Source: Promethearchaeia archaeon
Lineage (GTDB): Archaea; Asgardarchaeota; Lokiarchaeia; Sigyniarchaeales; SOKP01
Direction: 5' to 3'
Length of the DNA stretch: 64,000 nt
Assembly (NCBI GenBank): GCA_029856045.1
Contig: JAHQWG010000016.1
Coordinates: 192,001-256,000, forward strand
Shown here: positions 5,636 to 60,059 of the stretch, piece after piece
Numbering within the stretch: position 1 is the stretch's first letter
Layout of the letters: every line of letters begins with the position of its first letter
The notes under the pieces: generated by a model
What the model was told of the DNA's origin: nothing
Database searches by the model: none
What the model saw: only the letters and a program-made list of their open reading frames with translations
Translations under genes and position numbers: made by a program

Positions 5636-6144
5636 TGAAGATAACAATGAATAATAACAGAACACATAAAAAAATCAAAGTAGCGGAAACTAGTGACTAT
5701 TTTTTTATAGAACTTTGTGCCAAAGAATATATTGATCTAATAAAGAATTTTAAGAAAAAATTTGAAAATAATGACTTTTTTATTCTAATTGGCTATTATG
5801 AAAATAATGTTGCAGGAGTTCTAGTAAGTGAAAGAAATAATGTAGTTAAATCTATTAAAGATATTTTACCGGCTATACAAATTCATTTTGTATATGTTAA
5901 TCCAGCATTTAGAGGGAAGAAAATAGGTCATAATTTACTAAATGAATTTGTTAATATTAAAAAAAGAAATAATATTGCTTTAATATTTGTAGAACTCTTT
6001 AAAAATAATAAAAAAGGAATGAAATTTTTTGAAAAATTTGGTTTTCAAAAAGTAAAAATTGATGCTGCTAAAGTTATTCTTACAAAGAATATTTGGGACG
6101 ACCTAGGAATAAGTTCTCAAGAATTCTTTGACATTTTTACATAA
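5617..6144 (+). CDS. GNAT-family N-acetyltransferase
   Basis: YVNPAFRGKKIG acetyl-CoA motif, N..GMKFFEKFGF; real start may be a downstream ATG. Confidence 0.8.
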   Translation: MENIKLMKITMNNNRTHKKIKVAETSDYFFIELCAKEYIDLIKNFKKKFENNDFFILIGYYENNVAGVLVSERNNVVKSIKDILPAIQIHFVYVNPAFRGKKIGHNLLNEFVNIKKRNNIALIFVELFKNNKKGMKFFEKFGFQKVKIDAAKVILTKNIWDDLGISSQEFFDIFT

Positions 6145-6267
6145 AATTCTCATTTTTCTTTGTACTTTTTCTAAAATCTTATTTTTATATCACTAAAAAT
6201 GGATAGAAAACCTTTTTTTGGATATTCCACTTAAATCAATTAAAAAAATATTTTATTCAAATTATAA

Positions 6268-7095
6268 TTGATATTGGATATGTTTAAAAAAGAATTGGGA
6301 ATTATTGGTACTGGCAATATTGGATTATCCTTATTAAATGGTATAATTAAATCAAAAATTATTGAAAAACAAAAAATTATAATATATGATATTAAAAAAG
6401 ATATTCTAAATCAATGTTCCAACCAGTTTAATGTAGAAATTGCACAAAATAATACCGATTTAGCTCATAAGAGTAAATATATATTAATCGCAGTTAAACC
6501 ACAAGTAATAAATACGGTTCTAGAAGAAATTGGATCTGTAGTTGATGAACAACAAATAATAATCTCTATTGTAGCAGGAATCCCAATTAAATATCTTTCT
6601 ACGTTTTTTAAAAAAGATGTAGGTTTATCAAGAGTAATGACTAATACACCTGCTTTAATTGGTTGTGGGGCATCTGCAATCTCTAATAATGGAAAAATGC
6701 ATGAAGAAAATCTTAATTTTGTAAAAAAAATTTTTAATGCAGTAGGGATAGTTGTAGAATTAGATGAAAGACATCTTGATGCTGTAACAGGATTATCAGG
6801 TAGCGGTCCTGCATATATATTTTTGATCATTGAGGCTTTAGCTGATGGTGGAGTTAAAATGGGGTTATCACGTGATGTATCTTTACAATTAGCTGCCCAG
6901 ACTGTTTTAGGTGCAGCAAAATTGGTTATAAAAACTGGAAAACACCCGGCACTTCTAAAAGACATGGTAGCTACTCCTGGAGGTACGACAATTGATGCAT
7001 TGCACATGTTAGAAATTGGAAATATTAGATCTATTTTAATTGATGCAGTCGAAACTGCAACCATCAAATCCCGAAAACTTGGTTCAAAGGAGTAA
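6268..7095 (+). CDS. proC: Pyrroline-5-carboxylate reductase
   Basis: GIIGTGNIG, AVKPQ, RVMTNTP, TGLSGSGPAY, TPGGTT; likely ATG start at 6280. Confidence 0.96.
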   Translation: MILDMFKKELGIIGTGNIGLSLLNGIIKSKIIEKQKIIIYDIKKDILNQCSNQFNVEIAQNNTDLAHKSKYILIAVKPQVINTVLEEIGSVVDEQQIIISIVAGIPIKYLSTFFKKDVGLSRVMTNTPALIGCGASAISNNGKMHEENLNFVKKIFNAVGIVVELDERHLDAVTGLSGSGPAYIFLIIEALADGGVKMGLSRDVSLQLAAQTVLGAAKLVIKTGKHPALLKDMVATPGGTTIDALHMLEIGNIRSILIDAVETATIKSRKLGSKE

Positions 7096-7388
7096 TTATA
7101 ATTTGATTGTAAATTGCAATCTTAAGCCCAATAATAAAATAAAAATATAGTTATTATCACTAATTTTCACATTATTTTATCTTCTTCATAAAAAATTTAA
7201 GATATAACAGATTAATATTTAAAAATATAACGGGAAAAAAATGGGCGTTAGTTCCCAAATACTAAAAGAAAAATTTATTAAGATTGTTATTCTAATCATA
7301 TTGTTATTTATTTTGTTCAGAAATGGTAAAAATTCACGTTCTTAATGCAATTAAAAAGTAAATTTAAAAGAAAAATTTAAATATTTAG

Positions 7389-9320
7389 TTGATAGTGATG
7401 GGAGGCACTTTAACAGAAAAGATTTTAAAAAAACACCTTGTTAATGGTAAATTAGAAAAAGGTAGTAATATTGGTATAAGGATCGACCAAACCCTAACTC
7501 AAGATGCTACCGGTACTATGGCTTATTTGCAATTCGAAGCTATGGGAGTACCTCACGTTCGAACAAAATTATCTGTTAGTTATGTGGATCACAACACTTT
7601 ACAAATAGACTTCAGAAATGCAGATGATCACAGATATCTACAAAGTATTGCAGCAAAATATGGAATCTACTTTTCTCGTCCAGGAAATGGTATATGTCAT
7701 CAGCTCCATCTCGAACGTTTTGCAGTACCTGGAAAGACTTTATTAGGAAGCGATAGTCATACACCAACTGGTGGTGGGGTGGGTATGATAGCAATAGGAG
7801 CAGGTGGTCTTGATGTTGCCGCTGCTATGGCTGGAGAACCTTTTTTTTTAAAGATGCCAAAGATCGTAAATGTTCATCTTACAGGGAAACTCCCTGATTT
7901 TGTATCAGCAAAAGATGTTATTTTGGAAGTTTTACGTAGAATTGGTATTAAAGGGGCTGTTAATAAAGTTTTGGAATATACAGGTCCGGGAATAAAAACT
8001 TTATCAGTTCCTGAAAGAGGAACCATTACAAACATGGGAACAGAAACAGGAGCGACAACTTCAATATTCCCTTCTGATGAAACGACGAAAAAGTTCTTAG
8101 AAGCCCAAGAGAGAGGAGATCAATGGAATCCTTTAAAACCCGATGATGATGCTACTTATGATGAGATTATTGAAATAAATTTGAATGAGATTGAACCACT
8201 TATTGCTTTACCGCATAGTCCGGGAAATGTAAAACTAGTAAAAGAATTTGAGGGGAAGTCTGTTGATCAAATTTGTATAGGAAGCTGTACCAACTCCTCA
8301 TTAAGAGATCTTAAAATAGTTGCCAATATTTTAAAAGGAAAAACAATCAATAATCATGTTAGCTTAACAATTTCGCCAGGATCTAGACAAGTCGTAGATC
8401 ATCTCGTGAACTCTGGTGAAATATCCAATTTAGTAAAAGCAGGAGCAAGGATACTTGAGAACACGTGCGGTCCTTGCATAGGAATGGGACAGGCACCATC
8501 AACTGATGCAATATCTCTTAGGACCTTTAATAGAAACTTCCTTGGAAGATCAGGAACAAAAAGTGCCAATGTTTATTTAGTTAGTCCTGAAACTGCTGCA
8601 GTGTCGAGTATATTTGGAAAAATAACAGATCCGAGAAAGTTTGGTGAGTATCCCAAAATAGAAATGCCAGATAAATTTATAGTTAACGATAATATGATTA
8701 TATCGCCTTTAGAGGATAGTGATTCAATTGAAATCATCCGAGGACCTAATATCAAACCTCTACCTGCATTCGAACCTTTACAAGATAAACTAACAGGAGA
8801 AGTTCTATTAAAAGTAGAGGATGACATAACTACTGATCATATTATGCCAGCAGGTGCAAAAATACTCCCATTACGAAGTAATATTCCTGAAATAAGCAAA
8901 TATGTTTTTAATATTATAGATCCCACATTTCCAGATAGATCTCTACAAAAAGAAGGGGGTTTTGTTATCGGAGGTGATAATTATGGACAGGGTTCAAGTA
9001 GAGAACATGCGGCTATCGCTCCTAAATACCTAGGGCTCAAAGCTGTGATAACAAAATCATTTGCTCGTATTCATCTAGCTAACCTTGTTAATTTTGGGAT
9101 TGCACCTTTTACTTTTATAAATAAGGAAGATTATAATAAGATTGATCAAGGTGATCAACTTGATATTAATTTAAAAACCCTGGAAAGTAAAAAGATCATC
9201 ATGAAAAATCTGACAAAGAATTTAGAAATCCCTCTTACCCATTCTCTTAGTGAGATGGAAATAATTGTATTAAAGGCTGGGGGAAAATTGCCATTTATAA
9301 AAAAAAGATATGCGAGTTAA
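7389..9320 (+). CDS. acnA: Aconitate hydratase
   Basis: QDATGTMA, DSHT, GSCTN, CGPCIG cluster ligands, TTDHI, NYGQGSSREHAA; likely ATG at 7398. Confidence 0.92.
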   Translation: MIVMGGTLTEKILKKHLVNGKLEKGSNIGIRIDQTLTQDATGTMAYLQFEAMGVPHVRTKLSVSYVDHNTLQIDFRNADDHRYLQSIAAKYGIYFSRPGNGICHQLHLERFAVPGKTLLGSDSHTPTGGGVGMIAIGAGGLDVAAAMAGEPFFLKMPKIVNVHLTGKLPDFVSAKDVILEVLRRIGIKGAVNKVLEYTGPGIKTLSVPERGTITNMGTETGATTSIFPSDETTKKFLEAQERGDQWNPLKPDDDATYDEIIEINLNEIEPLIALPHSPGNVKLVKEFEGKSVDQICIGSCTNSSLRDLKIVANILKGKTINNHVSLTISPGSRQVVDHLVNSGEISNLVKAGARILENTCGPCIGMGQAPSTDAISLRTFNRNFLGRSGTKSANVYLVSPETAAVSSIFGKITDPRKFGEYPKIEMPDKFIVNDNMIISPLEDSDSIEIIRGPNIKPLPAFEPLQDKLTGEVLLKVEDDITTDHIMPAGAKILPLRSNIPEISKYVFNIIDPTFPDRSLQKEGGFVIGGDNYGQGSSREHAAIAPKYLGLKAVITKSFARIHLANLVNFGIAPFTFINKEDYNKIDQGDQLDINLKTLESKKIIMKNLTKNLEIPLTHSLSEMEIIVLKAGGKLPFIKKRYAS

Positions 9321-10622
9321 TTGGATATGGCACAAAAAAATATATATGAATATGATGCAAAAAAACTTATAGCGAGTCAATTACCTAATTATTTTCCCGA
9401 ATTTAATTACCATGAAAAATTAGCGGTAATTACTCCTGAGAAATTGGCTAATTTTGATAGATTTGTAGCAGAAAATCCATGGTTAAAAACAGATAAATTA
9501 GTGGCAAAACCAGACCAACTTTTTGGAAAGAGGGGTAAAGCTAATCTAATATTACTAGACGCTAATTTAGAACAATTAAAGAAATTTGCTGAAGAAAAAT
9601 TAGATCAGCAAATCATAATAGGAAATGTTAAAGGTGTTCTCAATCGTTTATTAATAGAACCATACATTCCCCATGAAGCTGAATACTATATATCAATAAC
9701 ATCTGATCGGTATAATGATATAATTCATTTTAGTTTTGAAGGAGGTATTTTTGTAGAAGAAAACTGGGATAAAGTAATTCATATTTCAATTCCATTTGAG
9801 AAAAATATCGAATCTTTCGATTTGGAAACAAAACTTCCTAATTTAGGAAAATTTAATGATGTATTAATTCCTTTTATTAAAGGTCTTTTTCAAGTTTATT
9901 GTGCTCAAGATTTTGCTTTTTTAGAAATTAATCCTTTTGCAATTACTGAGGATAAAAAAATTGTTCCGCTAGATTTAAAAGCTAGATTAGATGATACTGC
10001 TGCATTCTTACATATGGATACTTGGGGGAATCCAAATAACCCAATTGAATTTCCAATTGGTATTGGGCAAAAATTGGCAAAAGAAGAAGCTCTTATTAAG
10101 GATTTAGATGAAAAAACAGGTGCTTCTCTTAAATTTCAGATTTTAAATAGAGATGGACAAATTTGGACTATGGTGGCAGGTGGGGGTGCATCAGTTGTAT
10201 ATACGGATACTATAGTTGATCTAGGATATGGAGATGATTTAGGTAATTATGGTGAATATTCTGGCAATCCTTCTCGTGAGCACACTGAAATTTATGCTCA
10301 AAATATAATTGATCTTATTTCAACCAACCCAGATCCCCAAGGAAGAGAGAAATATCTTATTATTGGTGGTGGAATTGCTAATTTTACAGATGTTAAGGCA
10401 ACCTTTACTGGAATTGTTAGCGCAATTAGAAAATCTGCTAATAAATTAAAAAATGCAAAAGTTAAAATATTTGTTCGTAGGGGTGGTCCTAATGAAAAAC
10501 AAGGTCTAGAACTCATGAAGCAAGTGGGAAAAGAAACTGGCGTTCCGATTGAAGTTTACGACCGATACACACATATGACTCGAGTTGTATCAATTGCACT
10601 TAATAAAAATTTGAAGAGGTAA
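9321..10622 (+). CDS. aclB: ATP-citrate lyase beta (ATP-grasp) subunit
   Basis: KPDQLFGKRGK, LEINP, ASLK, WTMVAGGGASVVY, NYGEYSG, GGGIANFT, VRRGGPN ACL motifs. Confidence 0.94.
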   Translation: MDMAQKNIYEYDAKKLIASQLPNYFPEFNYHEKLAVITPEKLANFDRFVAENPWLKTDKLVAKPDQLFGKRGKANLILLDANLEQLKKFAEEKLDQQIIIGNVKGVLNRLLIEPYIPHEAEYYISITSDRYNDIIHFSFEGGIFVEENWDKVIHISIPFEKNIESFDLETKLPNLGKFNDVLIPFIKGLFQVYCAQDFAFLEINPFAITEDKKIVPLDLKARLDDTAAFLHMDTWGNPNNPIEFPIGIGQKLAKEEALIKDLDEKTGASLKFQILNRDGQIWTMVAGGGASVVYTDTIVDLGYGDDLGNYGEYSGNPSREHTEIYAQNIIDLISTNPDPQGREKYLIIGGGIANFTDVKATFTGIVSAIRKSANKLKNAKVKIFVRRGGPNEKQGLELMKQVGKETGVPIEVYDRYTHMTRVVSIALNKNLKR

Positions 10623-10626
10623 TAAA

Positions 10627-12462
10627 ATGGAAAGTTATAAACTTTTTAATAAAAATACTCAAGCAATTATTTATGGTTTTCAAACAAGACCCGTCCAGCG
10701 CATGCTTGATTTTGATTTTGTTTGTAAAAGAAAAAAACCATCAGTTGCCGCAATAATTAGACCAACTCAGACGACAGCCATAGACTATCATAAAGTCTTT
10801 TGGGGCAATAAAGAAATTGTTATCCCCATTTATAAAACACTAGCATTAGCAACTAAAAAGCATCCAATAGCCGATGTGATGATCAATTTCTCTTCTTTTA
10901 GATCATCTTATCCCACTAGCAAGGAAGCTCTTGAGTCAGATACAATAAGAACAGTTGTTATAATTGCTGAAGGTATTCCAGAAAGACAAAGCCGCGATTT
11001 AATTAGAATCGCACGTGAAAGAAGTAAATTTATTATAGGTCCTGCAACAGTAGGTGGAATAGTAGCTGGTAATTTCAAAATTGGAAATACTGCTGGGACC
11101 CTTGAAAATATAATTCTTTCAAAACTCTATCGCCCAGGTTCAATTGGTTTTGTTTCTAAATCAGGTGGTATGAGTAATGAAATGAATTTTATGATTTCTC
11201 AATGCACTGATGGTATCTATGAAGGTATAGCTATAGGTGGTGACCGTTATCCGGGTTCGCGTTTAATAGATCACCTTTTACGTTATGAAACCAATCCCAA
11301 AATTAAAATGTTGGTAGCACTAGGAGAAATAGGAGGAACAGATGAGTATGCAATTGTAGAAGCATTGAAAAATGGATCTATTAAGAAACCATTGGTCATA
11401 TGGGTAACTGGGACCGCTGCAAAAATTTTACCTCAAGGATTACAATTTGGTCATGCCGGTGCTATGGCTGGAAGCGAGAAAGAAACTGCTGACGCGAAAA
11501 ACCAAGCTCTTAGAGAAGCTGGAGCAATTGTTCCTGATTCTTATGAAGATTTAGATAAAAAAATTAAAGAAACATTTGAAAAATTAAAAAAAGAAGGAAA
11601 AATCGTGCCGTTTGATGAATTTGAACCACCTAAAGTTCCAATGGACTTTTCCGAAGCCCAGCGTTTAGGCTTAGTAAGAAGACCTACAAACGTTATTGTT
11701 ACAATTTCGGACGATCGGGGTGATGTTCCCACTTTTGCTGGTGTAGGATTAGATAAAATTATTAGAGAAAATAAATCAATTGGATATGTAATTGGTCTTT
11801 TATGGTTTAAAAGAGAATTACCAGAATTTGCTCAACAATTTATTGAAATAGTAATTAAATTAACTGCAGATCACGGTCCAGCTGTAAGTGGGGCACATAA
11901 TGCGATTATCACTGCTCGAGCGGGTAAGGATCTTATGTCTTCACTTGCTTCTGGTATATTAACGATTGGACCTCGCTTCGGCGGTGCTATCTCGAACGCA
12001 GCGAAATATTTTAGAGAAGCTTTACAGAAAAGAATGTCTCCCTTAGAATTTATTAATTATATGAAAAATACGGCAAAAATAAATATACCAGGGATAGGTC
12101 ATAGAATTAAATCCGTTCAAAATCCCGATGTACGTGTTCAACTACTTAAAGAATTTGTATTTAAAAATTTCTCTAAACACCCACATCTTGATTATGCTTT
12201 AGATGTAGAAAAAATTACCACTTCAAAGAAAAATAATCTCATTTTAAATGTTGATGGATGTATTGGTATCTGTTTCTTAGACCTTCTTGAAAATTTAGAT
12301 TTTACTACTGAAGAAATTGAGGATGTAATATATAGTGAGACTTTAAATGGTCTTTTTGTCCTTGGAAGATCTATTGGTATGATGGGACATGTTTTCGATC
12401 AGAAACGTCAGCGAGCTGGGCTTTTTAGGGAACCTTGGGACCAAATATTATTCACAGATTAG
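10627..12462 (+). CDS. aclA: ATP-citrate lyase alpha subunit (CoA-binding, phospho-His and citryl-CoA lyase domains)
   Basis: QRMLDFDF, IGPATVGG, KSGGMSNE, QFGHAGA phospho-His loop, ADHGPAVSGAHN, PGIGHRIKS, LNVDG. Confidence 0.95.
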   Translation: MESYKLFNKNTQAIIYGFQTRPVQRMLDFDFVCKRKKPSVAAIIRPTQTTAIDYHKVFWGNKEIVIPIYKTLALATKKHPIADVMINFSSFRSSYPTSKEALESDTIRTVVIIAEGIPERQSRDLIRIARERSKFIIGPATVGGIVAGNFKIGNTAGTLENIILSKLYRPGSIGFVSKSGGMSNEMNFMISQCTDGIYEGIAIGGDRYPGSRLIDHLLRYETNPKIKMLVALGEIGGTDEYAIVEALKNGSIKKPLVIWVTGTAAKILPQGLQFGHAGAMAGSEKETADAKNQALREAGAIVPDSYEDLDKKIKETFEKLKKEGKIVPFDEFEPPKVPMDFSEAQRLGLVRRPTNVIVTISDDRGDVPTFAGVGLDKIIRENKSIGYVIGLLWFKRELPEFAQQFIEIVIKLTADHGPAVSGAHNAIITARAGKDLMSSLASGILTIGPRFGGAISNAAKYFREALQKRMSPLEFINYMKNTAKINIPGIGHRIKSVQNPDVRVQLLKEFVFKNFSKHPHLDYALDVEKITTSKKNNLILNVDGCIGICFLDLLENLDFTTEEIEDVIYSETLNGLFVLGRSIGMMGHVFDQKRQRAGLFREPWDQILFTD

Positions 12463-12578
12463 AATTATATTTTTATATATTTAATGCAAAGTTATTAAAA
12501 TTTCATTAAAATTGGAAATATCTTAAGTAAAAAATAAAAAAAAATATTAAATAAAATGATATCTGAGGTTTAAAGATA

Positions 12579-13769
12579 ATGGATGAAATTATAGAAAAAG
12601 CAAAAGAACATTTCGCAAAAATCGTAAAAGAGCAGTTAGAAAGAGTAGAAAAGTTAAAAAGTGAAAAAGATTGGATTGATTATTCAAAGTTAAAACCCAT
12701 TATTATAGGGATTGTTGGTGGAGATGGTATTGGTCCTGAAATTTCAAAGCATGCTAAAAAAATATTTGAATTTCTTTTACAAGACGAATTAAAAGAAGGA
12801 AAAGTTGAATTGAGAGAAATTGAAGGATTAACCATTGAAAATAGAGCAAAAGTAATGAAGGCAATACCAGAAGATATTCTTGAAGAAATTAAAAAATGTC
12901 ATGTTCTGTTAAAAGGTCCTACAACGACTCCTAGAAAGGGTGATAAATGGCCTAACATCGAAAGTGCTAATGTATCAATGCGCCGTGAATTAGATCTTTT
13001 TGCAAATGTACGCCCCGTGAAAGTTCCCGAACTTGGTATTGATTGGATGTTTTTCCGAGAAAATACTGAAGGAGCTTATGTTTTGGGCTCCAAAGGGGTA
13101 AACATTACTGAAGATCTCTCATTTGATTTTAAAGTAATTACAACACAAGGAGCAGATCGTATAATCAGGCTAGCTTTTGATTATGCTAAGAAGAATAATA
13201 TTAATAGAGTCACAGTTGTAACTAAAGCTAATGTAGTAAAAGCAACTGACGGGAAATTTCTTGACATAGCTGAAAAAATTGCTAAGGAATATCCCGAAAT
13301 TGAATGGGACGATTGGTATATTGACATTATGACTGCAAAATTAATAGACCCCGCTCGTCAATCTCAATTTAAGATTTTAGTAGCTCCTAATCTATATGGG
13401 GACATTATTACCGATGAGGCTGCACAAATCCAGGGTGGCGTTGGAACGGCAGGTAGTGCTAATATAGGTAAGAGATATTCCATGTTCGAAGCAATTCATG
13501 GATCAGCTCCACGTATGGTTGAAGAAGGTCGCTTAAAATATGCTGATCCCTCAAGTCTAATAAAAGCTTCAGCATTATTACTTAATCATATAGGTTTCAT
13601 AGAAAAGGCGAAAAAATTAGAAATGGCACTTGATATATGCGCAACATATGAGAAGAAGTTAGAAATAACGGGAAGATCAAATGGTGCAACTGGGGAAGAT
13701 TTCTCAAAATATATAATGGAAACTCTCCAACATCCAAATTTAGAGGAAAAATGGAAAAGTTATCAATAG
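12579..13769 (+). CDS. icd: Isocitrate dehydrogenase (isocitrate/isopropylmalate dehydrogenase family)
   Basis: GDGIGPEI, KGPTTTP, RENTEG, KANV, NLYGDI, FEAIHGSAP; follows acn-acl. Confidence 0.8.
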   Translation: MDEIIEKAKEHFAKIVKEQLERVEKLKSEKDWIDYSKLKPIIIGIVGGDGIGPEISKHAKKIFEFLLQDELKEGKVELREIEGLTIENRAKVMKAIPEDILEEIKKCHVLLKGPTTTPRKGDKWPNIESANVSMRRELDLFANVRPVKVPELGIDWMFFRENTEGAYVLGSKGVNITEDLSFDFKVITTQGADRIIRLAFDYAKKNNINRVTVVTKANVVKATDGKFLDIAEKIAKEYPEIEWDDWYIDIMTAKLIDPARQSQFKILVAPNLYGDIITDEAAQIQGGVGTAGSANIGKRYSMFEAIHGSAPRMVEEGRLKYADPSSLIKASALLLNHIGFIEKAKKLEMALDICATYEKKLEITGRSNGATGEDFSKYIMETLQHPNLEEKWKSYQ

Positions 13770-13879
13770 ATTAAGAAATATTTCAAGAATTATTATATTT
13801 TAAAAAATGTTTTTTTAATGAAAGTACTCTCTATTTAAAAATTTAAATATTTACGATAAGAAGAACAAGGAAAACAAAA

Positions 13880-15238: not shown

Positions 15239-15337
15239 AAAAAAAGAGAAAGAACAGAATTCAAATAGAAGTCCTATTGTTAATTAATAATTATTATTTT
15301 ATATTTTTTATAAGACAAATTTGAAGAAAATAATAGA

Positions 15338-17527
15338 ATGAAAATGTTGAATTTAGCAGAAAAAAAATATGAATTAAAAAAAATAGCAAGAGGTTATACA
15401 AATCGGACCCTTTATATCAATTTAACAAAAAATGAAATCTTAATTAAACCAGTTACCAATGAAATGAAAGATAAATTTATTGGTGGCAAAGGATTCGATC
15501 TCTGGCTTATGTGGAATGCTCTACCTAAAGATCGAATTGTAAAATGGGATGATCCAGAAAATGAAATTTGTATCTCATCTGGTCCGCTTGGAGGTAATAC
15601 ATTTTACCCAGGTTCTGGAAAATCAATAGTCACAACAATATCTCCATTAACAGGAATAATAATTGATAGTAATGTTGGTGGTTATTTTGGGCCATATTTG
15701 AAATTTTCTGGATTTGATGCACTGGAAATTCATGGAAAAGCAAAACAAGAAATTATAATTTTTATTGATGGAATAAATGGAATTATTCGCATTGAAGAAA
15801 TAAATGATTTTGAAAATCTTTCAAATGACTCTCATTTACTCACGCAACAATTAACGGAAAAATATGCAAAAGATGAAAATGAAAAAATTCAAATTTCTGT
15901 TGTAAGTACAGGTTCAGCTTCTAAACATACTAAATGGGGAATGTTAAATTTCTCTTGGTATAGTCGCAAACGTAAATGGGCTTCATGCAAACAAGCAGGA
16001 CGCGGTGGAGTTGGAACTGTCTTTGCTGATAAAAATCTCAAAGCTTTAATTTGTCGGTCTCCCAAAGTTGATTTAGAAATAAATAACCCAGCAGATTTTG
16101 ATACAGCTCGTAAGATCGGTAAAAAACATAACCAAGAGATTATTAAATATGATCCAATACAAAATGAAATGAGATCTGTGGGAACAGGACATCTCCCAGA
16201 GATCATGAATGTATATGATCTTCTCCCAACTGAAAATTTTCGTTTTGGGTCTCATAAGGTAATAAAAGATAATAAAATTCCTCTCAATCGAGAAGCATGG
16301 CGTAAAATTTTTTCTGGGGAATCTGGTAGTGATGGTTGTTGGTTTGGTTGTACACTCAGTTGTTCTCACTATTGTAGGGAACATAAAGTAATAACTGGTC
16401 CTTATAAAGATCAAAAAGTTATTGTAGATGGTCCGGATTATGAAACTATTGCAGGTTGTGGTCCAAATTGGGGTGTTTGGGACCCCAAATGGTTATTAGA
16501 AACAAATTTCTACTGTGATACATACGGTCTCGATACAATCTCTGTAGGAACAGGAATTGCTTTTGTTATGGAATGTTATGAAGCTGGAATTTTAAATAAA
16601 GAAATCACTAGTGGACTAGAACTTAATTTTGGTAATGCTTTTGCTGCTTTAGAACTAATCCATCAAATGGCTGAAGGGAAAGGGTTTGGTTTAATTGTAG
16701 GACAAGGTATTCATATAATGAAAAACATTTTTGCTGAGAAATATGGAGCAGATCCTAAATTTCTTCATGATATTGGTATGGAACATAAAGGTTTAGAATT
16801 CTCTGAATATGTTACCAAAGAATCATTGGCTCAACAAGGAGGATATGGACTTACTCTAAAAGGACCGCAACATGATGAGGCATGGTTAATATTTGAAGAT
16901 ATGGTTAGAAAATCTATTCCAACATTTGAAGACAAGGCTAAAGCATTATGTTGGTTTCCTTTCTGGAGAACATGGTTCTCATTAAATGGACTCTGTAAAT
17001 TACCATGGAATGATGTTCAACCTCCAAATAATGTTGAATATCCTGTTAGAGACCCAAAAACTAAAGAACTTCTCCGTGCAAGGATTCCAAACCATGTAGA
17101 GTGGTATTCACAATATTTCTCAGCTGTAACTGGTCGCAAATCTACTCCTAAGGATCTTATTAGAATGTCTGAGCGAGTGTATAACTTTCAAAGAATTTTT
17201 AATATCCGACAAGGTAAGGGTCTTCGAGAACATGATTCCAATTTACCCTATAGAGCTGTTGGTCCTGTAACGCCTACTGAATATGAGAGTCGTTTAGAGA
17301 GATATGATGATCAAATTAAAGATATTGGAATTAATATTAAGGGAAAAACAACAGAGGAAAAAATTAGGATTCTACGGGAGTATCGAGAAAAACAATATGA
17401 AATGCTTCAAGATGCTGTTTATAAACATCGTGGCTGGAATAATAAGGGTTGTCCAACGATTGAAAAAGCCAAAGAATTAGGAATTGCATTTGATGATGTT
17501 ATTTCTGTGATTCTTCCCTACCAATAA
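15338..17527 (+). CDS. Tungsten aldehyde:ferredoxin oxidoreductase family protein
   Basis: SNVGGYFG, AGRGGVG, CWFGCTLSC cluster motif, DYET, GLDTIS, ERVYNFQRIFN. Confidence 0.9.
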   Translation: MKMLNLAEKKYELKKIARGYTNRTLYINLTKNEILIKPVTNEMKDKFIGGKGFDLWLMWNALPKDRIVKWDDPENEICISSGPLGGNTFYPGSGKSIVTTISPLTGIIIDSNVGGYFGPYLKFSGFDALEIHGKAKQEIIIFIDGINGIIRIEEINDFENLSNDSHLLTQQLTEKYAKDENEKIQISVVSTGSASKHTKWGMLNFSWYSRKRKWASCKQAGRGGVGTVFADKNLKALICRSPKVDLEINNPADFDTARKIGKKHNQEIIKYDPIQNEMRSVGTGHLPEIMNVYDLLPTENFRFGSHKVIKDNKIPLNREAWRKIFSGESGSDGCWFGCTLSCSHYCREHKVITGPYKDQKVIVDGPDYETIAGCGPNWGVWDPKWLLETNFYCDTYGLDTISVGTGIAFVMECYEAGILNKEITSGLELNFGNAFAALELIHQMAEGKGFGLIVGQGIHIMKNIFAEKYGADPKFLHDIGMEHKGLEFSEYVTKESLAQQGGYGLTLKGPQHDEAWLIFEDMVRKSIPTFEDKAKALCWFPFWRTWFSLNGLCKLPWNDVQPPNNVEYPVRDPKTKELLRARIPNHVEWYSQYFSAVTGRKSTPKDLIRMSERVYNFQRIFNIRQGKGLREHDSNLPYRAVGPVTPTEYESRLERYDDQIKDIGINIKGKTTEEKIRILREYREKQYEMLQDAVYKHRGWNNKGCPTIEKAKELGIAFDDVISVILPYQ

Positions 17528-17565
17528 AATATATAGAATAAAAAATCTTATTAGAAAATTGAGTT

Positions 17566-19656
17566 TTGATGGAAAATATAACTAATCATCCCATCCTTAA
17601 GATACCTAAAAGAAAATTAGTTAATTTTAGTTTTAATGGAAAAAAAATAACGGGGTTTGAAGGAATGGTGATTTCCTCAGCTCTTTTTATGAATAAAATC
17701 AAAATTTTTGGTCATCATGCAAAAGATAACAGCCCTCAAGGTATTTTTTGTTCTAATGGGCAGTGTGCTCAATGCACAGTTATTGTCAATGGTAAACCTG
17801 TAAAATCTTGTATGACTCCACTTAATGATGGTATGATAATAGAAAGCTGTGAGGGTTTGCCGGAATTACCAGATGATGATAAACTGGTCTCAGTGGGAGA
17901 CCCACCAATAATAGAAACTCAATTGTTAATAATAGGTGCTGGACCTGCTGGTCTTTCAGCTTGTCAAATCCTTGGAGAAAAAGGGATTCAAGTAATTATA
18001 ATTGATGATAAAGACAGACCTGGTGGAAAATTAGTCCTTCAAACTCATAAATTTTTTGGCTCTCAAGAAGATGTATATGCAGGTAAACGAGGCATAGATA
18101 TTGCAGAAATTCTCAGTGAGGCAGTTCGCTCCTTATCTAATGTGGATATTTGGCTTAACAGTACTGCTTTAGCTGTTTTTAGCGATGGTTTAATTGGTAT
18201 CTTAAAAAATAATGAAGAATATGTTATAGTAAAACCAAAATATCTCTTAATTGCTACAGGAGCAAGAGAACAAATGCTAATATTTCCAGGTAATACCCTT
18301 CCAGGAGTATATGGTGCTGGTGCATTTCAGACCTTAGTTAATCGGGATTTAATTAAAGCTGCAGAACGTATCTTCATCGTAGGTGGCGGTAATGTGGGAT
18401 TAATTGCAGGATATCATGCACTCCAAGCTGGTATTGAAGTTATTGGTTTGATTGAAGCACTACCCCAATGTAGTGGATACAAGGTCCATGAAGATAAACT
18501 TAGATTTTTGGATGTTCCGATTTATACAAGTCATACTGTTTTATCAGCAAATGGAGATAATAAAGTAGAATCTATTACTATTGGACAAGTAGATAAAAAT
18601 TTTAATATACTTCCTGGAACCGAAATAACTTTTGCTGTTGATGCTATTTTAATTGCAGTTGGCTTAAACCCAGTAGATGAATTTTATCATAAAGCTAAGG
18701 AATATAAATTGAAAGTTTGGGTGGCTGGTGATGCTCAAGAGATAGCAGAGGCATCTGCAGCAATTTTTACGGGCAAAATTGAAGGAATTAAAATATTAAA
18801 GGAAATGGGACTTAATACAATAGATAATGTTGATGAACTTGAAGAAAAAGCAAGTATTATGAAATCAAAACCCCTTCCTCCTGTTCAATTAGATGTTCCA
18901 GATATAGAAGAAGGAATCTTTCCTGTTTTCCATTGCATTCAAGAAATCCCATGCAATCCTTGCACTTCTGTATGCCCTCAAAAGCAGATTGAAACGATTG
19001 ACGGTTCAATAATGCAATTACCATATTTTAAAGGGGAGAAAGAATGCACTGGTTGTGGACGATGTATAGCTGTATGCCCTGGTTTAGCAGTGACTTTAAT
19101 TGATTATCGTAAGGATAAAAACAATCCAATTGTTACTTTTCCATTTGAAATGACTACTGAAAAGTTAAAGATGGATCAAATAATTACAATAGTTGGTAAT
19201 CATGGCGAATTAGGCCAATTTAAAGTAATTAAATCTAGAATTATTAAAGATTTTCCACTCACTCAACTTGTATCCATCAAATTACCATCTAAAATTGCTA
19301 AACGTGCCGTGGGTATTAGATTACAACCATCAATTGTTAGAGAACCTTTAGAACTTTACTATAAACACCCTCTTGCTAATGATACCATTGTATGTCGATG
19401 TGAACGAGTAACGGTTGGTGAAATCAGAAAATGGATACGTAAAGGAATAACTGATTTTAATGAGCTTAAAGCTTTAACTCAAGTTGGAATGGGAGCATGT
19501 GGAGGCAAAACATGCACTCCTCTTATTTATCGCATCTTCAGTGAAGAAGGAGTATCTCTTGATGAAATTACCCCCGGAACATTACGTCCTTTATTAATAG
19601 AAGTCCCCATGGGTCTTTTTGCTCGAACAAAGGAGGAGGATAAATATCGAATATGA
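17566..19656 (+). CDS. Multidomain flavo-iron-sulfur oxidoreductase (proline dehydrogenase/sarcosine oxidase alpha-like, fused ferredoxin and BFD-like domains)
   Basis: N-terminal CSNGQCAQC 2Fe-2S, IGAGPAG FAD site, ATGA, GGGNVG, IPCNPC/CTGCGRCIAVCP ferredoxin, C-terminal CRCE..CGGKTC. Confidence 0.85.
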   Translation: MMENITNHPILKIPKRKLVNFSFNGKKITGFEGMVISSALFMNKIKIFGHHAKDNSPQGIFCSNGQCAQCTVIVNGKPVKSCMTPLNDGMIIESCEGLPELPDDDKLVSVGDPPIIETQLLIIGAGPAGLSACQILGEKGIQVIIIDDKDRPGGKLVLQTHKFFGSQEDVYAGKRGIDIAEILSEAVRSLSNVDIWLNSTALAVFSDGLIGILKNNEEYVIVKPKYLLIATGAREQMLIFPGNTLPGVYGAGAFQTLVNRDLIKAAERIFIVGGGNVGLIAGYHALQAGIEVIGLIEALPQCSGYKVHEDKLRFLDVPIYTSHTVLSANGDNKVESITIGQVDKNFNILPGTEITFAVDAILIAVGLNPVDEFYHKAKEYKLKVWVAGDAQEIAEASAAIFTGKIEGIKILKEMGLNTIDNVDELEEKASIMKSKPLPPVQLDVPDIEEGIFPVFHCIQEIPCNPCTSVCPQKQIETIDGSIMQLPYFKGEKECTGCGRCIAVCPGLAVTLIDYRKDKNNPIVTFPFEMTTEKLKMDQIITIVGNHGELGQFKVIKSRIIKDFPLTQLVSIKLPSKIAKRAVGIRLQPSIVREPLELYYKHPLANDTIVCRCERVTVGEIRKWIRKGITDFNELKALTQVGMGACGGKTCTPLIYRIFSEEGVSLDEITPGTLRPLLIEVPMGLFARTKEEDKYRI

Positions 19657-20809
19657 TGTAATCATAATCGGTTCGGGAAGTATTGGAGTTCCAACTGCAT
19701 TAGCCACAGCTCATGATGGACTTAAAACACTCGTTATTGAAGTATTACCTTCTCTTGCTCAAGGCGACAATAAACATGCAATTGGTGGAATTCGAGCAAC
19801 TCATTCACAAAAAAGTAAAATCTGGATTTGCCAAAGATCCATAGAAATCTTTTCTACTTGGAAAAAGAAGTACGGGGATGATATTTGGTGGGTTGAAGGG
19901 GGTTATGTTTTTATAGCAATTACAGAAGAACAAGAGAAATTGCTAAAAGACACTGTTGATCTTCAAAAGAAATATGGCTTAAACATTGAATATGTTGATG
20001 CGGAAAAAATTAAGGTACTTATACCTGGTATTAATGATCAAGGGTTATTGGGAGGAACTTTTAGCCCTAAAGATGGAAATGCTTCCCCTTTATTAGCCTT
20101 ACATTCCTTTTATCAGCAGTCAATAAATTGGGGGGCAGAATATAAATTTAAAGAAAAAGTTATTGATATTTTAATATATAATAAGAAAGTAACTGCTGTT
20201 AAAACTACAAAGGGCACCTATAAAACAAAAAATATAATTAATGCAGCTGGGGCTCTTGCAAAAAATATTGGTCAAATGGCTGGAATCGATATACCCGTGC
20301 AACCTGATTCTCACGAAGCTGGAATTACTGAACCTATTAAAAATTTTTTTTCACCTATGGTTGTTGATACACATCCCTGCTTAGATCCAAAATTTGGGAA
20401 TTCAAAAAATTATTATTTCTATCAGAATAAAGAAGGACAAATTATTTTCTGCCTTACTCCTGATCCAAGCAAATTTGGCACAGATCGAAGAGAAACAAGT
20501 TCCTTTTTACCGCAAATTTCAAAGAGGATGATTAAACTTTTACCTCGTTTGCGCAATATAAAAATAAGACGAACATGGCGAGGGTTATACCCAATGACTC
20601 TTGATGGAAATCCTATTATTGGACCTGTTAATAACCTTAAAGGATATATTAATGCTGTTGGGATGTGTGGACAAGGTTTTATGCTTGGTCCCGGGGTGGG
20701 GGAACTTCTAAGTCGTCTTTTAACTGGGAGAATTAACTCTCAAGATAATGAAATTTTTGAAGATCTTTCATTATATCGAAATTTTTATCAAGCAGAAGAT
20801 TTAAAGTAA
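19619..20809 (+). CDS. FAD-dependent amino-acid dehydrogenase (proline dehydrogenase/sarcosine oxidase beta-like)
   Basis: YDVIIIGSGSIG, GGIR, RTWRGLYPMT.DG.PIIG, GQGFMLGP DAO-family motifs; start codon uncertain. Confidence 0.85.
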   Translation: MLEQRRRINIEYDVIIIGSGSIGVPTALATAHDGLKTLVIEVLPSLAQGDNKHAIGGIRATHSQKSKIWICQRSIEIFSTWKKKYGDDIWWVEGGYVFIAITEEQEKLLKDTVDLQKKYGLNIEYVDAEKIKVLIPGINDQGLLGGTFSPKDGNASPLLALHSFYQQSINWGAEYKFKEKVIDILIYNKKVTAVKTTKGTYKTKNIINAAGALAKNIGQMAGIDIPVQPDSHEAGITEPIKNFFSPMVVDTHPCLDPKFGNSKNYYFYQNKEGQIIFCLTPDPSKFGTDRRETSSFLPQISKRMIKLLPRLRNIKIRRTWRGLYPMTLDGNPIIGPVNNLKGYINAVGMCGQGFMLGPGVGELLSRLLTGRINSQDNEIFEDLSLYRNFYQAEDLK

Positions 20810-20889
20810 AAATTTAAATAAAGAAATTATGGTATAAATCAAGTTAATAATCAAAGTGGAAAAATTATGATAATAAACATTCAAGATTA

Positions 20890-21843
20890 ATGAAATTAGA
20901 GGTGGATAAAATGATAAGACATTTATTAAAGATATCTGATTTCACAAAAGAGGAGTCCGAGAGAATTATTAACAAAGCAATTGAAATCAAGGCAAAGATG
21001 GAAAATTATAATACTATTTTGAAAAATAAAACCCTTTTAATGCTTTTTGAGAAACCATCTTTAAGAACTCGTGTTTCTTTTGAAACAGGAATGGAACAAC
21101 TTGGTGGTCATGCAATTTTTTATTCAATAAAAGATTCTCCTCTTGGAAAGAAAGAGAATATACATGATACAGCAAAAGTTACCTCAAGGTTTGTTGATTT
21201 GATTGCTGCTAGGGTTTTTAAAAGGGAGGATCTTCGAGAACTGGCAAAACACTCAGATGTTCCCGTTATAAATATGTTAGATGATTTTGCCCACCCTTGT
21301 CAAATCCTTAGCGATTTTCAAACTATTAAAGAGAAAAAAAATCGTCTTAAAAACTTGAAGATCTCATATTTTGGAGATGCTCATAATAACGTTACCTATG
21401 ACCTTATGAGGATGACTGCAATATTTGGTTTAAGAATGGATGTTGCATGTCCCAAGGGTGTAGAGTATTCCCCTGAGCAAGAAGTACTAGATGAGGTTGC
21501 AGAACTTTCAAGGAATACTGGAGCTGTAGTTAGGGTAATTGATAATGCCATAGAAGCCGCAAAGGAATCTGATATTGTATATACCGATTCATGGATGTCT
21601 TATGGAATTCCAGAAGAGCAAGAAGAAGAAAGAAAGAAAGATTTTATGCCCTATCAAGTAACCTCCATTATTATGTCAGCAGCAAAACCTGAAGCAATTT
21701 TCATGAATTGTCTACCTGCTATGCGAGGATATGAACAGACCGCCGAAATTATTGACGGTCCTCAATCTATAGTCTTTGATCAGGCAGAAAATCGCTTGCA
21801 TGCACAAAAAGCAATAATATTATTTTTACTTGACAAATTTTAA
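20890..21843 (+). CDS. argF: Ornithine carbamoyltransferase
   Basis: FEKPSLRTR, HPCQ, YTDSWMS, MNCLP, DQAENRLH. Confidence 0.95.
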   Translation: MKLEVDKMIRHLLKISDFTKEESERIINKAIEIKAKMENYNTILKNKTLLMLFEKPSLRTRVSFETGMEQLGGHAIFYSIKDSPLGKKENIHDTAKVTSRFVDLIAARVFKREDLRELAKHSDVPVINMLDDFAHPCQILSDFQTIKEKKNRLKNLKISYFGDAHNNVTYDLMRMTAIFGLRMDVACPKGVEYSPEQEVLDEVAELSRNTGAVVRVIDNAIEAAKESDIVYTDSWMSYGIPEEQEEERKKDFMPYQVTSIIMSAAKPEAIFMNCLPAMRGYEQTAEIIDGPQSIVFDQAENRLHAQKAIILFLLDKF

Positions 21844-21875
21844 AAAAAAATGCCTAGTTTTGGAGAAAAATTATT

Positions 21876-22781
21876 ATGAAAACTTTAATCGTTGCGCTTG
21901 GTGGAAACGCGCTAATTAAGTTTGGAGAAGAAGGAACTACTGAAGAACAATTTAGAAATTTACGAACTCCAATCAGACAAATTGCCGAATTATCAAAGGA
22001 ATATAATATCATTATAACACATGGAAATGGACCTCAAGTTGGAAACCTTCTACTGCAACAAGAGGCAACTAATGAAGTCACAAAAAGACCCTTGGGGATT
22101 TTAGTAGCTGAAACCCAAGGACAAATTGGATATATGATCGAATCAACCTTGGATGAGGAACTTATGCGCCTTAATATTGATGTTGAAAAACTATTTCTTA
22201 CTGTGTTGACATATGTACAAGTTGATCCTGAAGATCCAGCATTTAAACACCCAACTAAACCAATCGGACCTGCTTATTCAGAACCAGAACCTGGGTTTGT
22301 AAAAACTCCAAAAGGATGGCGACGAGTTGTTCCCTCTCCAAAACCCATCAAAATCTATCAATGGCGTGAAATTGAAAAATTAATCCAAGAAAATTTTATT
22401 GTAATTGCTTGCGGTGGTGGAGGAATTCCTGTGATAAAAGATGGTAGACGATTGCAAGGGGTTGAAGCTGTTATTGATAAAGATCTTGCTAGTGCAAAAT
22501 TGGGCCAACAAGTTGGTGCAGACATTCTGTTAATTGCAACTGATGTTGAATATGTTGCCTTGAATTATAAAAAACCAAATCAAAGGAATCTATTAAACCT
22601 TTCAATTTCAGATGTAAAAAAATATCTAAAGGAAGGACAGTTCCCAACTGGAAATATGGGCCCAAAAATGGAAGCTGTTATAAACTTTTTGGAATCTGGT
22701 GGAGAAAAAGCAATTATAACATCAATTGAAAATATCAAAGTAGCATTGCACGGAAAAACAGGAACTCAAATATATAAATAA
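21876..22781 (+). CDS. arcC: Carbamate kinase
   Basis: ALGGNAL, THGNGPQVG, PTKPIGP, RRVVPSPKP, GGGGIPV, EAVIDKD, MGPK. Confidence 0.96.
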   Translation: MKTLIVALGGNALIKFGEEGTTEEQFRNLRTPIRQIAELSKEYNIIITHGNGPQVGNLLLQQEATNEVTKRPLGILVAETQGQIGYMIESTLDEELMRLNIDVEKLFLTVLTYVQVDPEDPAFKHPTKPIGPAYSEPEPGFVKTPKGWRRVVPSPKPIKIYQWREIEKLIQENFIVIACGGGGIPVIKDGRRLQGVEAVIDKDLASAKLGQQVGADILLIATDVEYVALNYKKPNQRNLLNLSISDVKKYLKEGQFPTGNMGPKMEAVINFLESGGEKAIITSIENIKVALHGKTGTQIYK

Positions 22782-22842
22782 GTAATTAAATTTAATTATT
22801 ATTATCTATTGAAAAGAGAAAAATGATTGTATTATAGGACAT

Positions 22843-24102
22843 TTAATCAACAATTACATTTTCAATTATCTTCAAAGCCCAATCAATTTCTTTCTTGGTA
22901 ATTATTAAAGGTGGAGCGAAACGAATAGTTGTTGAATGAGTATCTTTGGCTAGAATTCCCTGTTCTTTTAGTTTCTCTACGAAATGTCTTGCCTCTCCCT
23001 CAAACTCAATGGCGATTAATAAACCCTTTCCCCTTACTTCTTTAACCGGGACTTTTGTTTTCTTATTTGTGATCTTTTTTAATCCATCAATAAAATAAGC
23101 ACCAATTTCTCTTGCTCGTTCTGCGAGATTTTCATTAATATGAACATCCAATGATTTCATAGCAACTGCAGCTGCTAGAGGGTTACCACCAAAGGTACTT
23201 CCATGGGTTCCTGGAGTTATTATCTCTGGACCAATTATCTCAGCTGTTGTTACAACTGCTGAAACTGGATATACTCCTCCTCCAAGCGCTTTACCAAGTA
23301 GAAACATATCTGGTTTGACATTTTCATGATCACACGCGAAAAGTTTTCCAGTCCTACAAAAACCCGTCTGTATTTCATCAACCATTAACAAAATATTATA
23401 TTTAGAACAAATCTTTCTTATCTTTCTTAAATATCCCTCTGGAGGGACTTTCACTCCCGCCTCTCCTTGGATTGGTTCAACTAAAAATGCTGCCACTTTT
23501 CCTGGACCAATTTCTAAGATTGTATTTTCCAATTTTTCTGCATCTCCATAAGGGATAATTGTAAACCCAGGCGTAAAAGGACCAAAATTATCGAAATATC
23601 TTGCATGTTGAATATCTGTACTTAATCCTACTAAAGTAATCGTTCTTCCGTGAAAATTATCATTACATACAATAATATTTGCCTCTCCTTTTGGTATCTT
23701 TTTCTTTATATAACTCCATGCTCTTGCTACTTTTAAACCTGTCTCCACTGCTTCTGCCCCCGTATTCATTGGCAAAGCCATTATCCCTGTTTTTTTTGGA
23801 TTATTCACATGTGGCCCAACAATATCACATAACTGTTTTAAATATGGTCCCATCATGTCATTATGGAATGCTCGAGAAGTTAGAGTTACTTTATCAGCTT
23901 GGTCTTTCAATGCTTTTATTATTTCAGGATGACAATGTCCAGTATTTTGACTTGAATATGCTGATAAACAGTCAAGATATTTTTTTCCTTCTGGATCATA
24001 TACCCAACACCCTTCTGCTTTTGATATAACTACAGAGATGGGATGATAATTATGAGCACCGTATTTTAAATCCATTTCAATGAATTCTTTTGAAGTTGGC
24101 AT
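22843..24102 (-). CDS. rocD: Ornithine--oxo-acid aminotransferase
   Basis: GAHNYHP, DCLSAYS, LTSRAF, PMNTGAEAVE, EPIQGEAG, DEIQTG, LGKALGGG, HGSTFGGNPL. Confidence 0.93.
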   Translation of the reverse strand: MPTSKEFIEMDLKYGAHNYHPISVVISKAEGCWVYDPEGKKYLDCLSAYSSQNTGHCHPEIIKALKDQADKVTLTSRAFHNDMMGPYLKQLCDIVGPHVNNPKKTGIMALPMNTGAEAVETGLKVARAWSYIKKKIPKGEANIIVCNDNFHGRTITLVGLSTDIQHARYFDNFGPFTPGFTIIPYGDAEKLENTILEIGPGKVAAFLVEPIQGEAGVKVPPEGYLRKIRKICSKYNILLMVDEIQTGFCRTGKLFACDHENVKPDMFLLGKALGGGVYPVSAVVTTAEIIGPEIITPGTHGSTFGGNPLAAAVAMKSLDVHINENLAERAREIGAYFIDGLKKITNKKTKVPVKEVRGKGLLIAIEFEGEARHFVEKLKEQGILAKDTHSTTIRFAPPLIITKKEIDWALKIIENVIVD

Positions 24103-28556: not shown

Positions 28557-28656
28557 TGGTAGAGGGGGTTGGATTTGAACCAACGATCTCAGGGTTTCTT
28601 AATGGCAGATACCAATTATGAGCCCTGCAGCATAAACCAGGCTAGCCCACCCCTCT
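28557..28656 (-). tRNA. Initiator tRNA-Met(CAT) with 21-nt intron at 37/38 (28596-28616), CCA encoded
   Basis: Reverse complement AGAGGGG...CAGGG CT CAT A[intron]A CCCTG...GGTTCAAATCC..CCCCTCT ACCA; A1:U72 and three consecutive G-C pairs in the anticodon stem are initiator hallmarks. Confidence 0.92.

Positions 28657-56907: not shown

Positions 56908-60059
<3,152 letters not shown>

Follow-up and report, generated by a model that had tools for sequence, protein, structure and literature searches.

In Thermococcus kodakarensis, the protein TK2200 is the arginine synthetase ArcE, which catalyses the reaction Arg + ADP + Pi <-> citrulline + NH3 + ATP (PMC11032458, PMC13260591); in the pathway that it forms with ArcB (ornithine carbamoyltransferase, OTC) and ArcC (carbamate kinase), a 'GTPase' resembling cyclic 2,3-diphosphoglycerate (cDPG) synthetase takes the place of arginine deiminase, and ornithine is passed to pyrroline-5-carboxylate (P5C) and proline (Michimori et al. 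2024, PMC11032458). TK2200 homologues annotated as GTPases, often near arcB/arcC, occur in Lokiarchaeota (PMC11032458). Here we describe a gene array from an Asgard archaeon that likewise combines such a protein with OTC and carbamate kinase, with no arcA, but differs in that the genes are clustered with those of an aldehyde:ferredoxin oxidoreductase (AOR), a proline dehydrogenase (PDH) and ornithine aminotransferase (rocD) and have an ATP-citrate lyase (ACL) operon upstream; moreover, the genome has a carbamoyl phosphate synthetase (CPS), whereas T. kodakarensis has none. The array lies in a stretch of 64,000 nucleotides (the window; contig C27:192001-256000 of genome G000, 3.34 Mb in 55 contigs, estimated 100% complete, G+C ~28%), and the nearest public relatives of this genome are metagenome-assembled genomes (MAGs) that bear the label Promethearchaeota/Promethearchaeia, a name for Asgard archaea of Lokiarchaeia type. 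We read the array as two separable modules that have lain side by side ever since the common ancestor of this order of Lokiarchaeia and that take part in a coupled catabolic scheme, and we give this reading a probability of about one half.

Other parts of the array resemble systems described elsewhere. The beta subunit of the PDH is clearly of the same type as that of Pyrococcus horikoshii PDH1 (1Y56), and the alpha subunits have the FAD/NAD fold in common. Here, however, the alpha subunit is a fusion protein of 696 aa in which an N-terminal 2Fe-2S domain, a 4Fe-4S dicluster and a 2Fe-2S domain of BFD-like type are joined, whereas the four-subunit enzymes of Thermococcales have them as small subunits of their own. 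PDH and an aldehyde-oxidising enzyme would together match both activities of PutA, but the NAD-dependent P5C dehydrogenase (P5CDH) of the PutA/P5CDH route is missing. The AOR (~729 aa) differs from the AOR and formaldehyde:ferredoxin oxidoreductase (FOR) of Pyrococcus furiosus in belonging to a separate, longer clade (~700-740 aa), and its orthologues are also present where no source of P5C was found; reportedly, C4-C6 semialdehydes derived from basic amino acids were at one time considered as substrates of FOR. The two-subunit ACL with its catalytic His motif, the aconitase, the isocitrate dehydrogenase (IDH) and KOR-like enzymes are shared with bacteria that use the reductive tricarboxylic acid (rTCA) cycle and with the rTCA proposal for Lokiarchaeia (10.1101/385732); however, no SucCD was found here, the ACL is patchy within genera, the operon spans exactly the steps from 2-oxoglutarate to acetyl-CoA + oxaloacetate, and the host probably ferments peptides. 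By pure analogy, the same three-enzyme logic (IDH1/2, aconitase, ACLY) takes glutamate-derived 2-oxoglutarate to acetyl-CoA in hypoxic mammalian cells, although the purpose here would be energy and redox balance rather than lipogenesis. While publications exist on the ArcE of Lokiarchaeota, the PDH of Thermococcales and the ACL of Lokiarchaeia, the literature searched contained no description of the combined array, of its order-wide collinearity, of an acn-aclBA-icd operon as a unit or of the absence of the canonical arginine/proline enzymes. It likewise contained no pairing of ACL with arginine for Lokiarchaeota and no proposal of glutamate semialdehyde (GSA) as a substrate of an AOR. A first-pass annotation of the window had known of no description of the combined arrangement in Asgard archaea.

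The array consists of eleven co-oriented open reading frames (ORFs; plus strand, 6268-22781), whose spacing ranges from -38 to 293 nt, and of the convergent rocD (minus strand, 22843-24102; Table 1). The ORFs match the twelve genes of the first-pass annotation exactly in position and orientation and all its family calls hold; we regard the gene and module identities as assigned as very probable. Contigs from other studies with ~99% identity span positions 5500-13736 (run X7) and 13326-16822 (run X8; icd, arcE and aor), and a separate MAG locus (L009) has the same gene order with 87-97% protein identity. Since independent contigs bridge the junctions and L009 keeps the order, the arrangement is not an assembly artefact.

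Table 1. The twelve genes of the array, followed by other features of the window. Gap: distance to the preceding gene. Linkage: loci with the gene on the given side of arcE, out of those with enough DNA on that side. Genomes: genomes with an orthologue, of 201.
Feature	Positions	Strand	Basis of assignment	Gap (nt)	Linkage to arcE	Genomes
proC, pyrroline-5-carboxylate reductase	6268-7095	+	TIGR00112, 285 bits (cutoff 197)		upstream 0/32	
acn, fused large+small-subunit aconitate hydratase	7389-9320	+	NF005558, 991 bits (cutoff 612)	293	upstream 1/32	59
aclB, ATP-citrate lyase beta (ATP-grasp + citrate-binding)	9321-10622	+	PF16114, 261 bits; PF24948, 221 bits	0	upstream 11/38 (aclA/aclB)	~45 (true ACL)
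aclA, ATP-citrate lyase alpha (CoA-ligase + citryl-CoA-lyase domain)	10627-12462	+	PF00549 and C-terminal part of PF00285	4	upstream 11/38 (aclA/aclB)	~45 (true ACL)
icd, isocitrate dehydrogenase, probably NADP-linked	12579-13769	+	PF00180, 230 bits	~100-116	upstream 15/38	39
arcE-like, candidate arginine synthetase	13880-15238	+	cDPG-synthetase-like P-loop protein	~100-116		164
aor, tungsten/molybdopterin aldehyde:ferredoxin oxidoreductase	15338-17527	+	AFOR_N and AFOR_C	~100-116	downstream 51/56	95
pdhA-like fusion, 696 aa	17566-19656	+	2Fe-2S, FAD/NAD(P), 4Fe-4S, BFD-like 2Fe-2S (Pfam)	38	downstream 45/48	
pdhB, L-proline dehydrogenase beta-type FAD subunit	19619-20809	+	DAO, 188 bits	-38 (overlap)	downstream 42/46	45
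otc/arcB, ornithine carbamoyltransferase	20890-21843	+	TIGR00658, 366 bits (cutoff 281)	80	downstream 36/45	
arcC, carbamate kinase	21876-22781	+	TIGR00746, 379 bits (cutoff 358)	32	downstream 14/42	
rocD, ornithine--oxo-acid aminotransferase, convergent	22843-24102	-	TIGR01885, 529 bits (cutoff 378)		downstream 10/40	65
Prokaryotic RING-finger protein	4106-4639	-				
MfnB-type 4-HFC-P synthase	4904-5635					
Get3/TRC40/ArsA-family ATPase	24383-25354					
tRNA match, 97 nt	28560-28656	-	Rfam, 48.5 bits			
Archaeal large-subunit rRNA, complete	56908-60060					

Module 1 consists of acn, aclB, aclA and icd. All features of a two-subunit ACL were found, namely the AclB domains, the AclA domains and the GHAGA motif; the complete phospho-His motif, GLQFGHAGAMA at residue 275 of AclA, is kept in 12 orthologues. 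AclA is the sole PF00285 match of the genome. The product of icd scores below the NCBIfam equivalog cutoffs (best match NF006673, 265 vs 509 bits; LEU3_arch, 244 vs 410 bits), and its best solved relatives are homodimeric NAD-dependent IDHs (6m3s, 6ltf and 6lky with 196, 196 and 189 bits, compared with 161 bits for homoisocitrate dehydrogenase (HICDH) and 134 bits for isopropylmalate dehydrogenase). Its motif ESANV, found in 14 of 16 icd orthologues, falls on the S-x-N that yeast IDH2 and three solved IDHs have at this place, where Thermus HICDH has G-A-I-R; the Ser-x-Asn pair (S113/N115 in E. coli) binds the gamma-carboxylate of isocitrate. The second and only other Iso_dh protein of the genome is LeuB-like. 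The first-pass annotation would have given up its proposal had the IDH-like enzyme been an isopropylmalate or homoisocitrate dehydrogenase; motif and structural ranking rule against this, and on the strength of these residues and matches we accept the protein as a predicted isocitrate dehydrogenase. At the position of cofactor specificity, NAD enzymes have Asp-Ile and the E. coli NADP-IDH Lys-Tyr; here, all 16 orthologues read HGSAPRM, and the Arg where NAD enzymes have Asp and the E. coli enzyme Lys suggests use of NADP(H). One further Iso_dh-like ORF, close to aor in genome G139, was set aside as a distant paralogue, as the true icd of G139 adjoins aclA.

Module 2 comprises arcE, aor, pdhA, pdhB, otc, arcC and rocD. 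The ArcE-like protein is soluble, carries a P-loop and has distant likeness to cDPG synthetase; an identity with the membrane-bound arginine/ornithine exchanger that is also called ArcE was dropped, because the protein is soluble and has a P-loop. In the ESM Atlas its family bears only automatic names ('putative GTPase'). The genome has arcC but no ArcA, and otc and arcC follow 5.6-6.6 kb downstream of arcE on the same strand. By its likeness to the published family description of TK2200, the gene is a candidate arginine synthetase. The AOR has its PDB matches in 1AOR (165 bits) and the FOR 1B25 (149 bits), is one of ~10 AOR paralogues of the genome and stays below the cutoffs of the named subfamilies searched (NF007354, 95 vs 868 bits; glyceraldehyde-3-phosphate:ferredoxin oxidoreductase, 44 vs 1300 bits); the homologous-protein search with the AOR returned only Lokiarchaeial orthologues, at 72% identity or more. 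The best PDB match of pdhB is 1Y56_B (181 bits, the next match having 86), and that of the adjoining pdhA is 1Y56_A (PH1363; 85 bits): a 1Y56_B-type beta subunit next to a PH1363-type alpha subunit is the signature of a Thermococcales-type L-proline dehydrogenase.

The rest of the genome gives these genes their weight. Searches of the whole genome found no arginine deiminase (no PF02274 match; the classical arcABC pathway thus lacks its ArcA), no argininosuccinate synthetase above cutoff (ArgG, 24 bits), no ArgC/LysY (46 vs 234), no ProB (36 vs 186), no ProA or P5CDH (the single Aldedh gene reaches 156, compared with 648 for P5CDH), no SucCD homologue and no citrate synthase (CS) other than AclA. 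The first-pass annotation had proposed to look in the genome for citrate synthase, arcA and P5CDH, and all three are absent; it had also noted that the window has no glutamate dehydrogenase (GDH) gene, which holds, and three GDH genes are present on other contigs. As arginine deiminase, ArgG, ArgC, ProA, ProB, P5CDH, citrate synthase and SucCD are all missing, the cluster holds, as far as family matches can tell, the only recognisable enzymes that link arginine, ornithine, proline and glutamate in this genome.

To follow the array through relatives, the ArcE-like protein was used as the anchor of a scan that covered 67 loci of Promethearchaeota type (71-96% identity) and 13 distant loci, and orthologues were compared across 201 genomes of the phylum (Table 1). 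The arrangement arcE-aor-pdhAB-otc(-arcC/rocD) is specific to the order of the window. Compared with related loci, the window has the compact form of the cluster: 24 relatives carry a flavodoxin-domain gene directly upstream of aor (e.g. L060:4091-4654) that is not in the window cluster, the genome having only a 32%-identical flavodoxin homologue on contig C51, and further interleaved genes in relatives encode a 4Fe-4S protein, pairs of sensor kinase and response regulator, a ThiC-family radical-SAM protein (between aor and pdhA, five loci) and an amidohydrolase (between pdhB and otc, seven loci). Module 1 has a wider distribution. The genes acn, aclB and aclA adjoin in genus g1 and in the families f2 (G083, G089), f7 (G046, G185, G194, G103), f21 (G044, G061) and f22 (G130), and icd stands directly behind aclA wherever ACL and this icd co-occur, with G130 having the order of the window. 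Given this adjacency, module 1 is an old operon that is kept across several Asgard families.

ACL and arcE were found on one contig only in the order of the window (families f1 and f2), always in the same order and on the same strand. The distance from aclA to arcE is 1.4 kb in G000 and G144, 2.0 kb in G162, 5 kb in G077, 6.5 kb in G174, 12 kb in G109, 19.5 kb in G171 and 26 kb in G104; G162 belongs to family f2 and is as compact as the window. The position of acn and proC beside the arginine genes is restricted to this genus. Of the synteny that the first-pass annotation had proposed to check across Asgard genomes, the collinearity on one strand was thus found throughout the order, and in f7, f21 and f22 the modules are unlinked.

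A variable, accessory member of the array is proC. A segment of 1.07 kb that holds it (6158-7227) is replaced by ~50 bp in the twin locus L009, which is 92-96% identical, and metagenome X8 also carries a variant joint from 6015 to 7410. The gene was found nowhere in the relatives G144 and G174, both 100% complete, and is seen upstream of acn in G125 and also in several metagenomes. Among near-identical genomes, proC is a present/absent polymorphism.

It is plausible that the two gene sets form one pathway, and module 2 is probably catabolic. ArcE would convert Arg, ADP and Pi to citrulline, NH3 and ATP, and OTC and carbamate kinase would give a second ATP, so that arginine would yield ornithine, CO2, 2 NH3 and two ATP. 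RocD would turn ornithine into GSA/P5C, PDH would deliver the same GSA/P5C from proline, and ProC, where present, would return P5C to proline. These steps follow the established functions of the families, while those of AOR, GDH and from IDH to ACL are steps that we infer. AOR would oxidise GSA to glutamate and reduce ferredoxin or flavodoxin, replacing the missing P5CDH, and the GDH copies elsewhere in the genome would yield 2-oxoglutarate and NADPH. Module 1 would interconvert 2-oxoglutarate and acetyl-CoA + oxaloacetate through isocitrate and citrate: the probably NADP-linked IDH would reductively carboxylate 2-oxoglutarate and consume the NADPH again, and ACL would split citrate into acetyl-CoA and oxaloacetate. 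Electrons would then exit only as reduced ferredoxin, which would suit a syntroph that releases hydrogen or formate. That module 1 runs in this reductive direction is a tentative assumption, somewhat on the doubtful side. The first-pass annotation had proposed one route between the C5 skeleton and the citrate branch; gene identities and order-wide collinearity bear it out, but the route lacks an established enzyme from GSA to glutamate. Its alternative, that the citrate branch runs oxidatively and supplies RocD with 2-oxoglutarate, describes a supply that stoichiometry does not call for, because GDH regenerates 2-oxoglutarate. In its most far-reaching form the scheme would provide Lokiarchaeia of this order with an anaerobic, ferredoxin-linked equivalent of PutA/RocD, in which a tungsten AOR is followed by carboxylation by NADP-IDH and cleavage by ACL, and arginine would yield at least three substrate-level ATP with surplus electrons leaving as reduced ferredoxin; this full version we consider improbable.

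The proposal that AOR oxidises GSA starts from the fixed place of its gene between arcE and pdhA, from the missing P5CDH and from the neighbouring flavodoxin of relatives. It is nevertheless doubtful, and the distribution of AOR is the first of several observations that weigh against the coupled scheme. Orthologues are present in at least 40 genomes that have neither RocD nor PDH: in family f7, aor is found in 34 of 43 genomes (one per genome, 56-72% identity) and pdhB and rocD in none of the 43, and further such cases are the f1 genera g3 and g6 and genome G180. No arginine/proline genes surround AOR in 16 genomes of other genera or families. The neighbours of the distant orthologue P0122 are an IlvD/Edd dehydratase, a FAD oxidase and a MoaD-like gene, and those of P0125 are a MoaD-like gene and a small reductase. 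Such orthologues, common without RocD or PDH and, when distant, in unrelated contexts, weaken the GSA step. Regarding the citrate branch, the direction of module 1 is not readable from gene content, and 2-oxoglutarate has another outlet, as KOR-like 2-oxoacid oxidoreductases are present. Citrate synthase is the only citrate enzyme of the two in g3, G180 and G192 and accompanies ACL in five g4 genomes; judged by these relatives, acn and icd can run oxidatively in family f1. As for the linkage, ACL and arcE are on different contigs in f7, f21 and f22, including the well-assembled G130, G139 and G103; in most relatives icd and arcE are set apart by unrelated genes (spacers of 5-26 kb); the ten intergenic gaps held no shared regulatory motif, only AT-rich words; and the AT-rich gaps of ~100 nt could each hold a promoter. 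Finally, the presence of CPS together with the absence of ArgG could mean that ArcE makes arginine.

Some neighbours of these genes were seen in passing. In family f7 (L093, L098, L101), AOR adjoins a flavoprotein of 928 aa that is NfnB/HdrA-like (Pyr_redox_2 + Fer4_20) and that may be an alternative electron partner of AOR, and in family f5 an Ldh_2 gene lies near AOR. Within one family, CS and ACL form a mosaic: some genomes have ACL alone, some CS alone, some both enzymes (CS then lying close to acn) and some neither of them, and acn and icd are present in all four cases.

The last of the points against the coupled scheme leads to a different view of the whole array, as a hub for the synthesis and interconversion of the glutamate family instead of a catabolic route. 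ACL would then run toward citrate, a direction reported for Desulfobacter postgatei, and acn and icd would supply 2-oxoglutarate and glutamate; P5C/GSA would come from proline by PDH or from glutamate by AOR in reverse, RocD would make ornithine, and OTC would turn it into citrulline, with CPS or carbamate kinase providing the carbamoyl phosphate; ArcE would then make arginine, and ProC proline. The genome has CPS, OTC and ArcE and lacks ArgG, ArgC, ProA and ProB, a combination that according to the authors of the ArcE study may indicate an anabolic ArcE (PMC11032458), and the reaction of ArcE lies close to equilibrium (standard free energy -6.8 kJ/mol; PMC11032458). ACL is the only citrate-forming candidate of the genome, relatives with CS only run acn and icd oxidatively, and proC heads the array; but near-identical genomes do without proC, biosynthesis needs no proline dehydrogenase, a carbamate kinase beside OTC is typical of the direction that yields ATP, and the reduction of glutamate to the semialdehyde by AOR would be thermodynamically steep and without precedent. 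The set is also dispensable: of the 40 members of family f1, 18 have both ACL and arcE, 9 have one only and 13 have neither, many of the latter being 98-100% complete, which fits peptide-feeding auxotrophs, and peptide-feeding auxotrophs and amino acid fermentation are described for cultured relatives (PMC7015854). On balance, we consider a biosynthetic hub rather unlikely.

The same counts bear on whether the modules are coupled at all. An ancient Asgard citrate operon and an arginine/proline set could have come together in the ancestor of the order and simply not yet have separated everywhere, being neighbours by descent with no metabolic coupling. The unlinked modules of f7, f21 and f22, the spacers in most f1 genomes and the lack of a shared motif in the gaps are what this would predict, and each sub-unit does occur alone in some relatives: aor in g3 and g6, arcE-otc-arcC-rocD without aor and pdhAB in L046, aor-pdhAB-otc-arcC-rocD without arcE in G192, and acn and icd without ACL in g3, g5 and g6. 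However, order and strand are kept in every same-contig case, across four genera and two families at ~75% protein identity, G162 shows the compact form again outside family f1, and ACL and arcE co-vary in presence and absence within f1 (18 with both, 13 with neither), although these genomes are kin and not independent. Neighbourhood by descent alone thus appears unlikely. Far less likely still is that module 1 belongs to an autotrophic rTCA cycle unrelated to amino acids. Bulzu et al. (bioRxiv 10.1101/385732) suggested such a cycle for Lokiarchaeia, and the genome does encode ACL, IDH, aconitase and KOR-like enzymes; but no SucCD-type succinyl-CoA synthetase was detected in the genome, so that the cycle is not complete, ACL is patchy even within genera, and cultured relatives ferment amino acids (PMC7015854). 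The coupled catabolic scheme of two long-standing neighbours therefore remains our preferred reading, at the even odds given above.

Further features of the window lie outside the array. G+C is 0.31-0.36 over positions 8001-24000, which cover most of the cluster, and 0.25-0.29 in the flanks. The genes that flank the cluster encode an ATPase of the Get3/TRC40/ArsA family on one side and a prokaryotic RING-finger protein on the other, two families with eukaryote-like associations. An MfnB-type synthase of 4-(hydroxymethyl)-2-furancarboxaldehyde phosphate (4-HFC-P), an enzyme of the methanofuran pathway, is encoded close by, and a second MfnB-type copy (G000:C3:50289-50981) stands beside another AOR paralogue (C3:51326-52561). 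The complete archaeal large-subunit (LSU) rRNA has ~50% G+C; as no small-subunit (SSU) rRNA lies within the 64 kb of the window, the rRNA genes appear unlinked. The tRNA match from Rfam was not found by ARAGORN and may be an intron-containing tRNA.

Asgard archaea serve as models for the metabolism of the archaeal ancestor of eukaryotes, and those in culture are syntrophs that feed on amino acids. With 164 of the 201 sampled genomes having an orthologue of the ArcE-like protein, a putative arginine synthetase route that conserves ATP is common across the phylum, and in one order it forms part of a larger arginine/proline unit that has a tungsten enzyme of its own. Apart from these genes, the genome of the window has no canonical means to make or break down arginine, ornithine or proline. 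That the Lokiarchaeial ACL belongs to a three-step, patchy operon calls for caution in citing ACL as evidence for rTCA autotrophy. The locus also offers enzyme assignments that can be tested: the substrate of AOR, the direction and cofactor of IDH and the direction of ArcE. If the full scheme were true, it would be a prokaryotic counterpart of the reductive glutamine metabolism of eukaryotes, in the archaeal lineage that is nearest to them.

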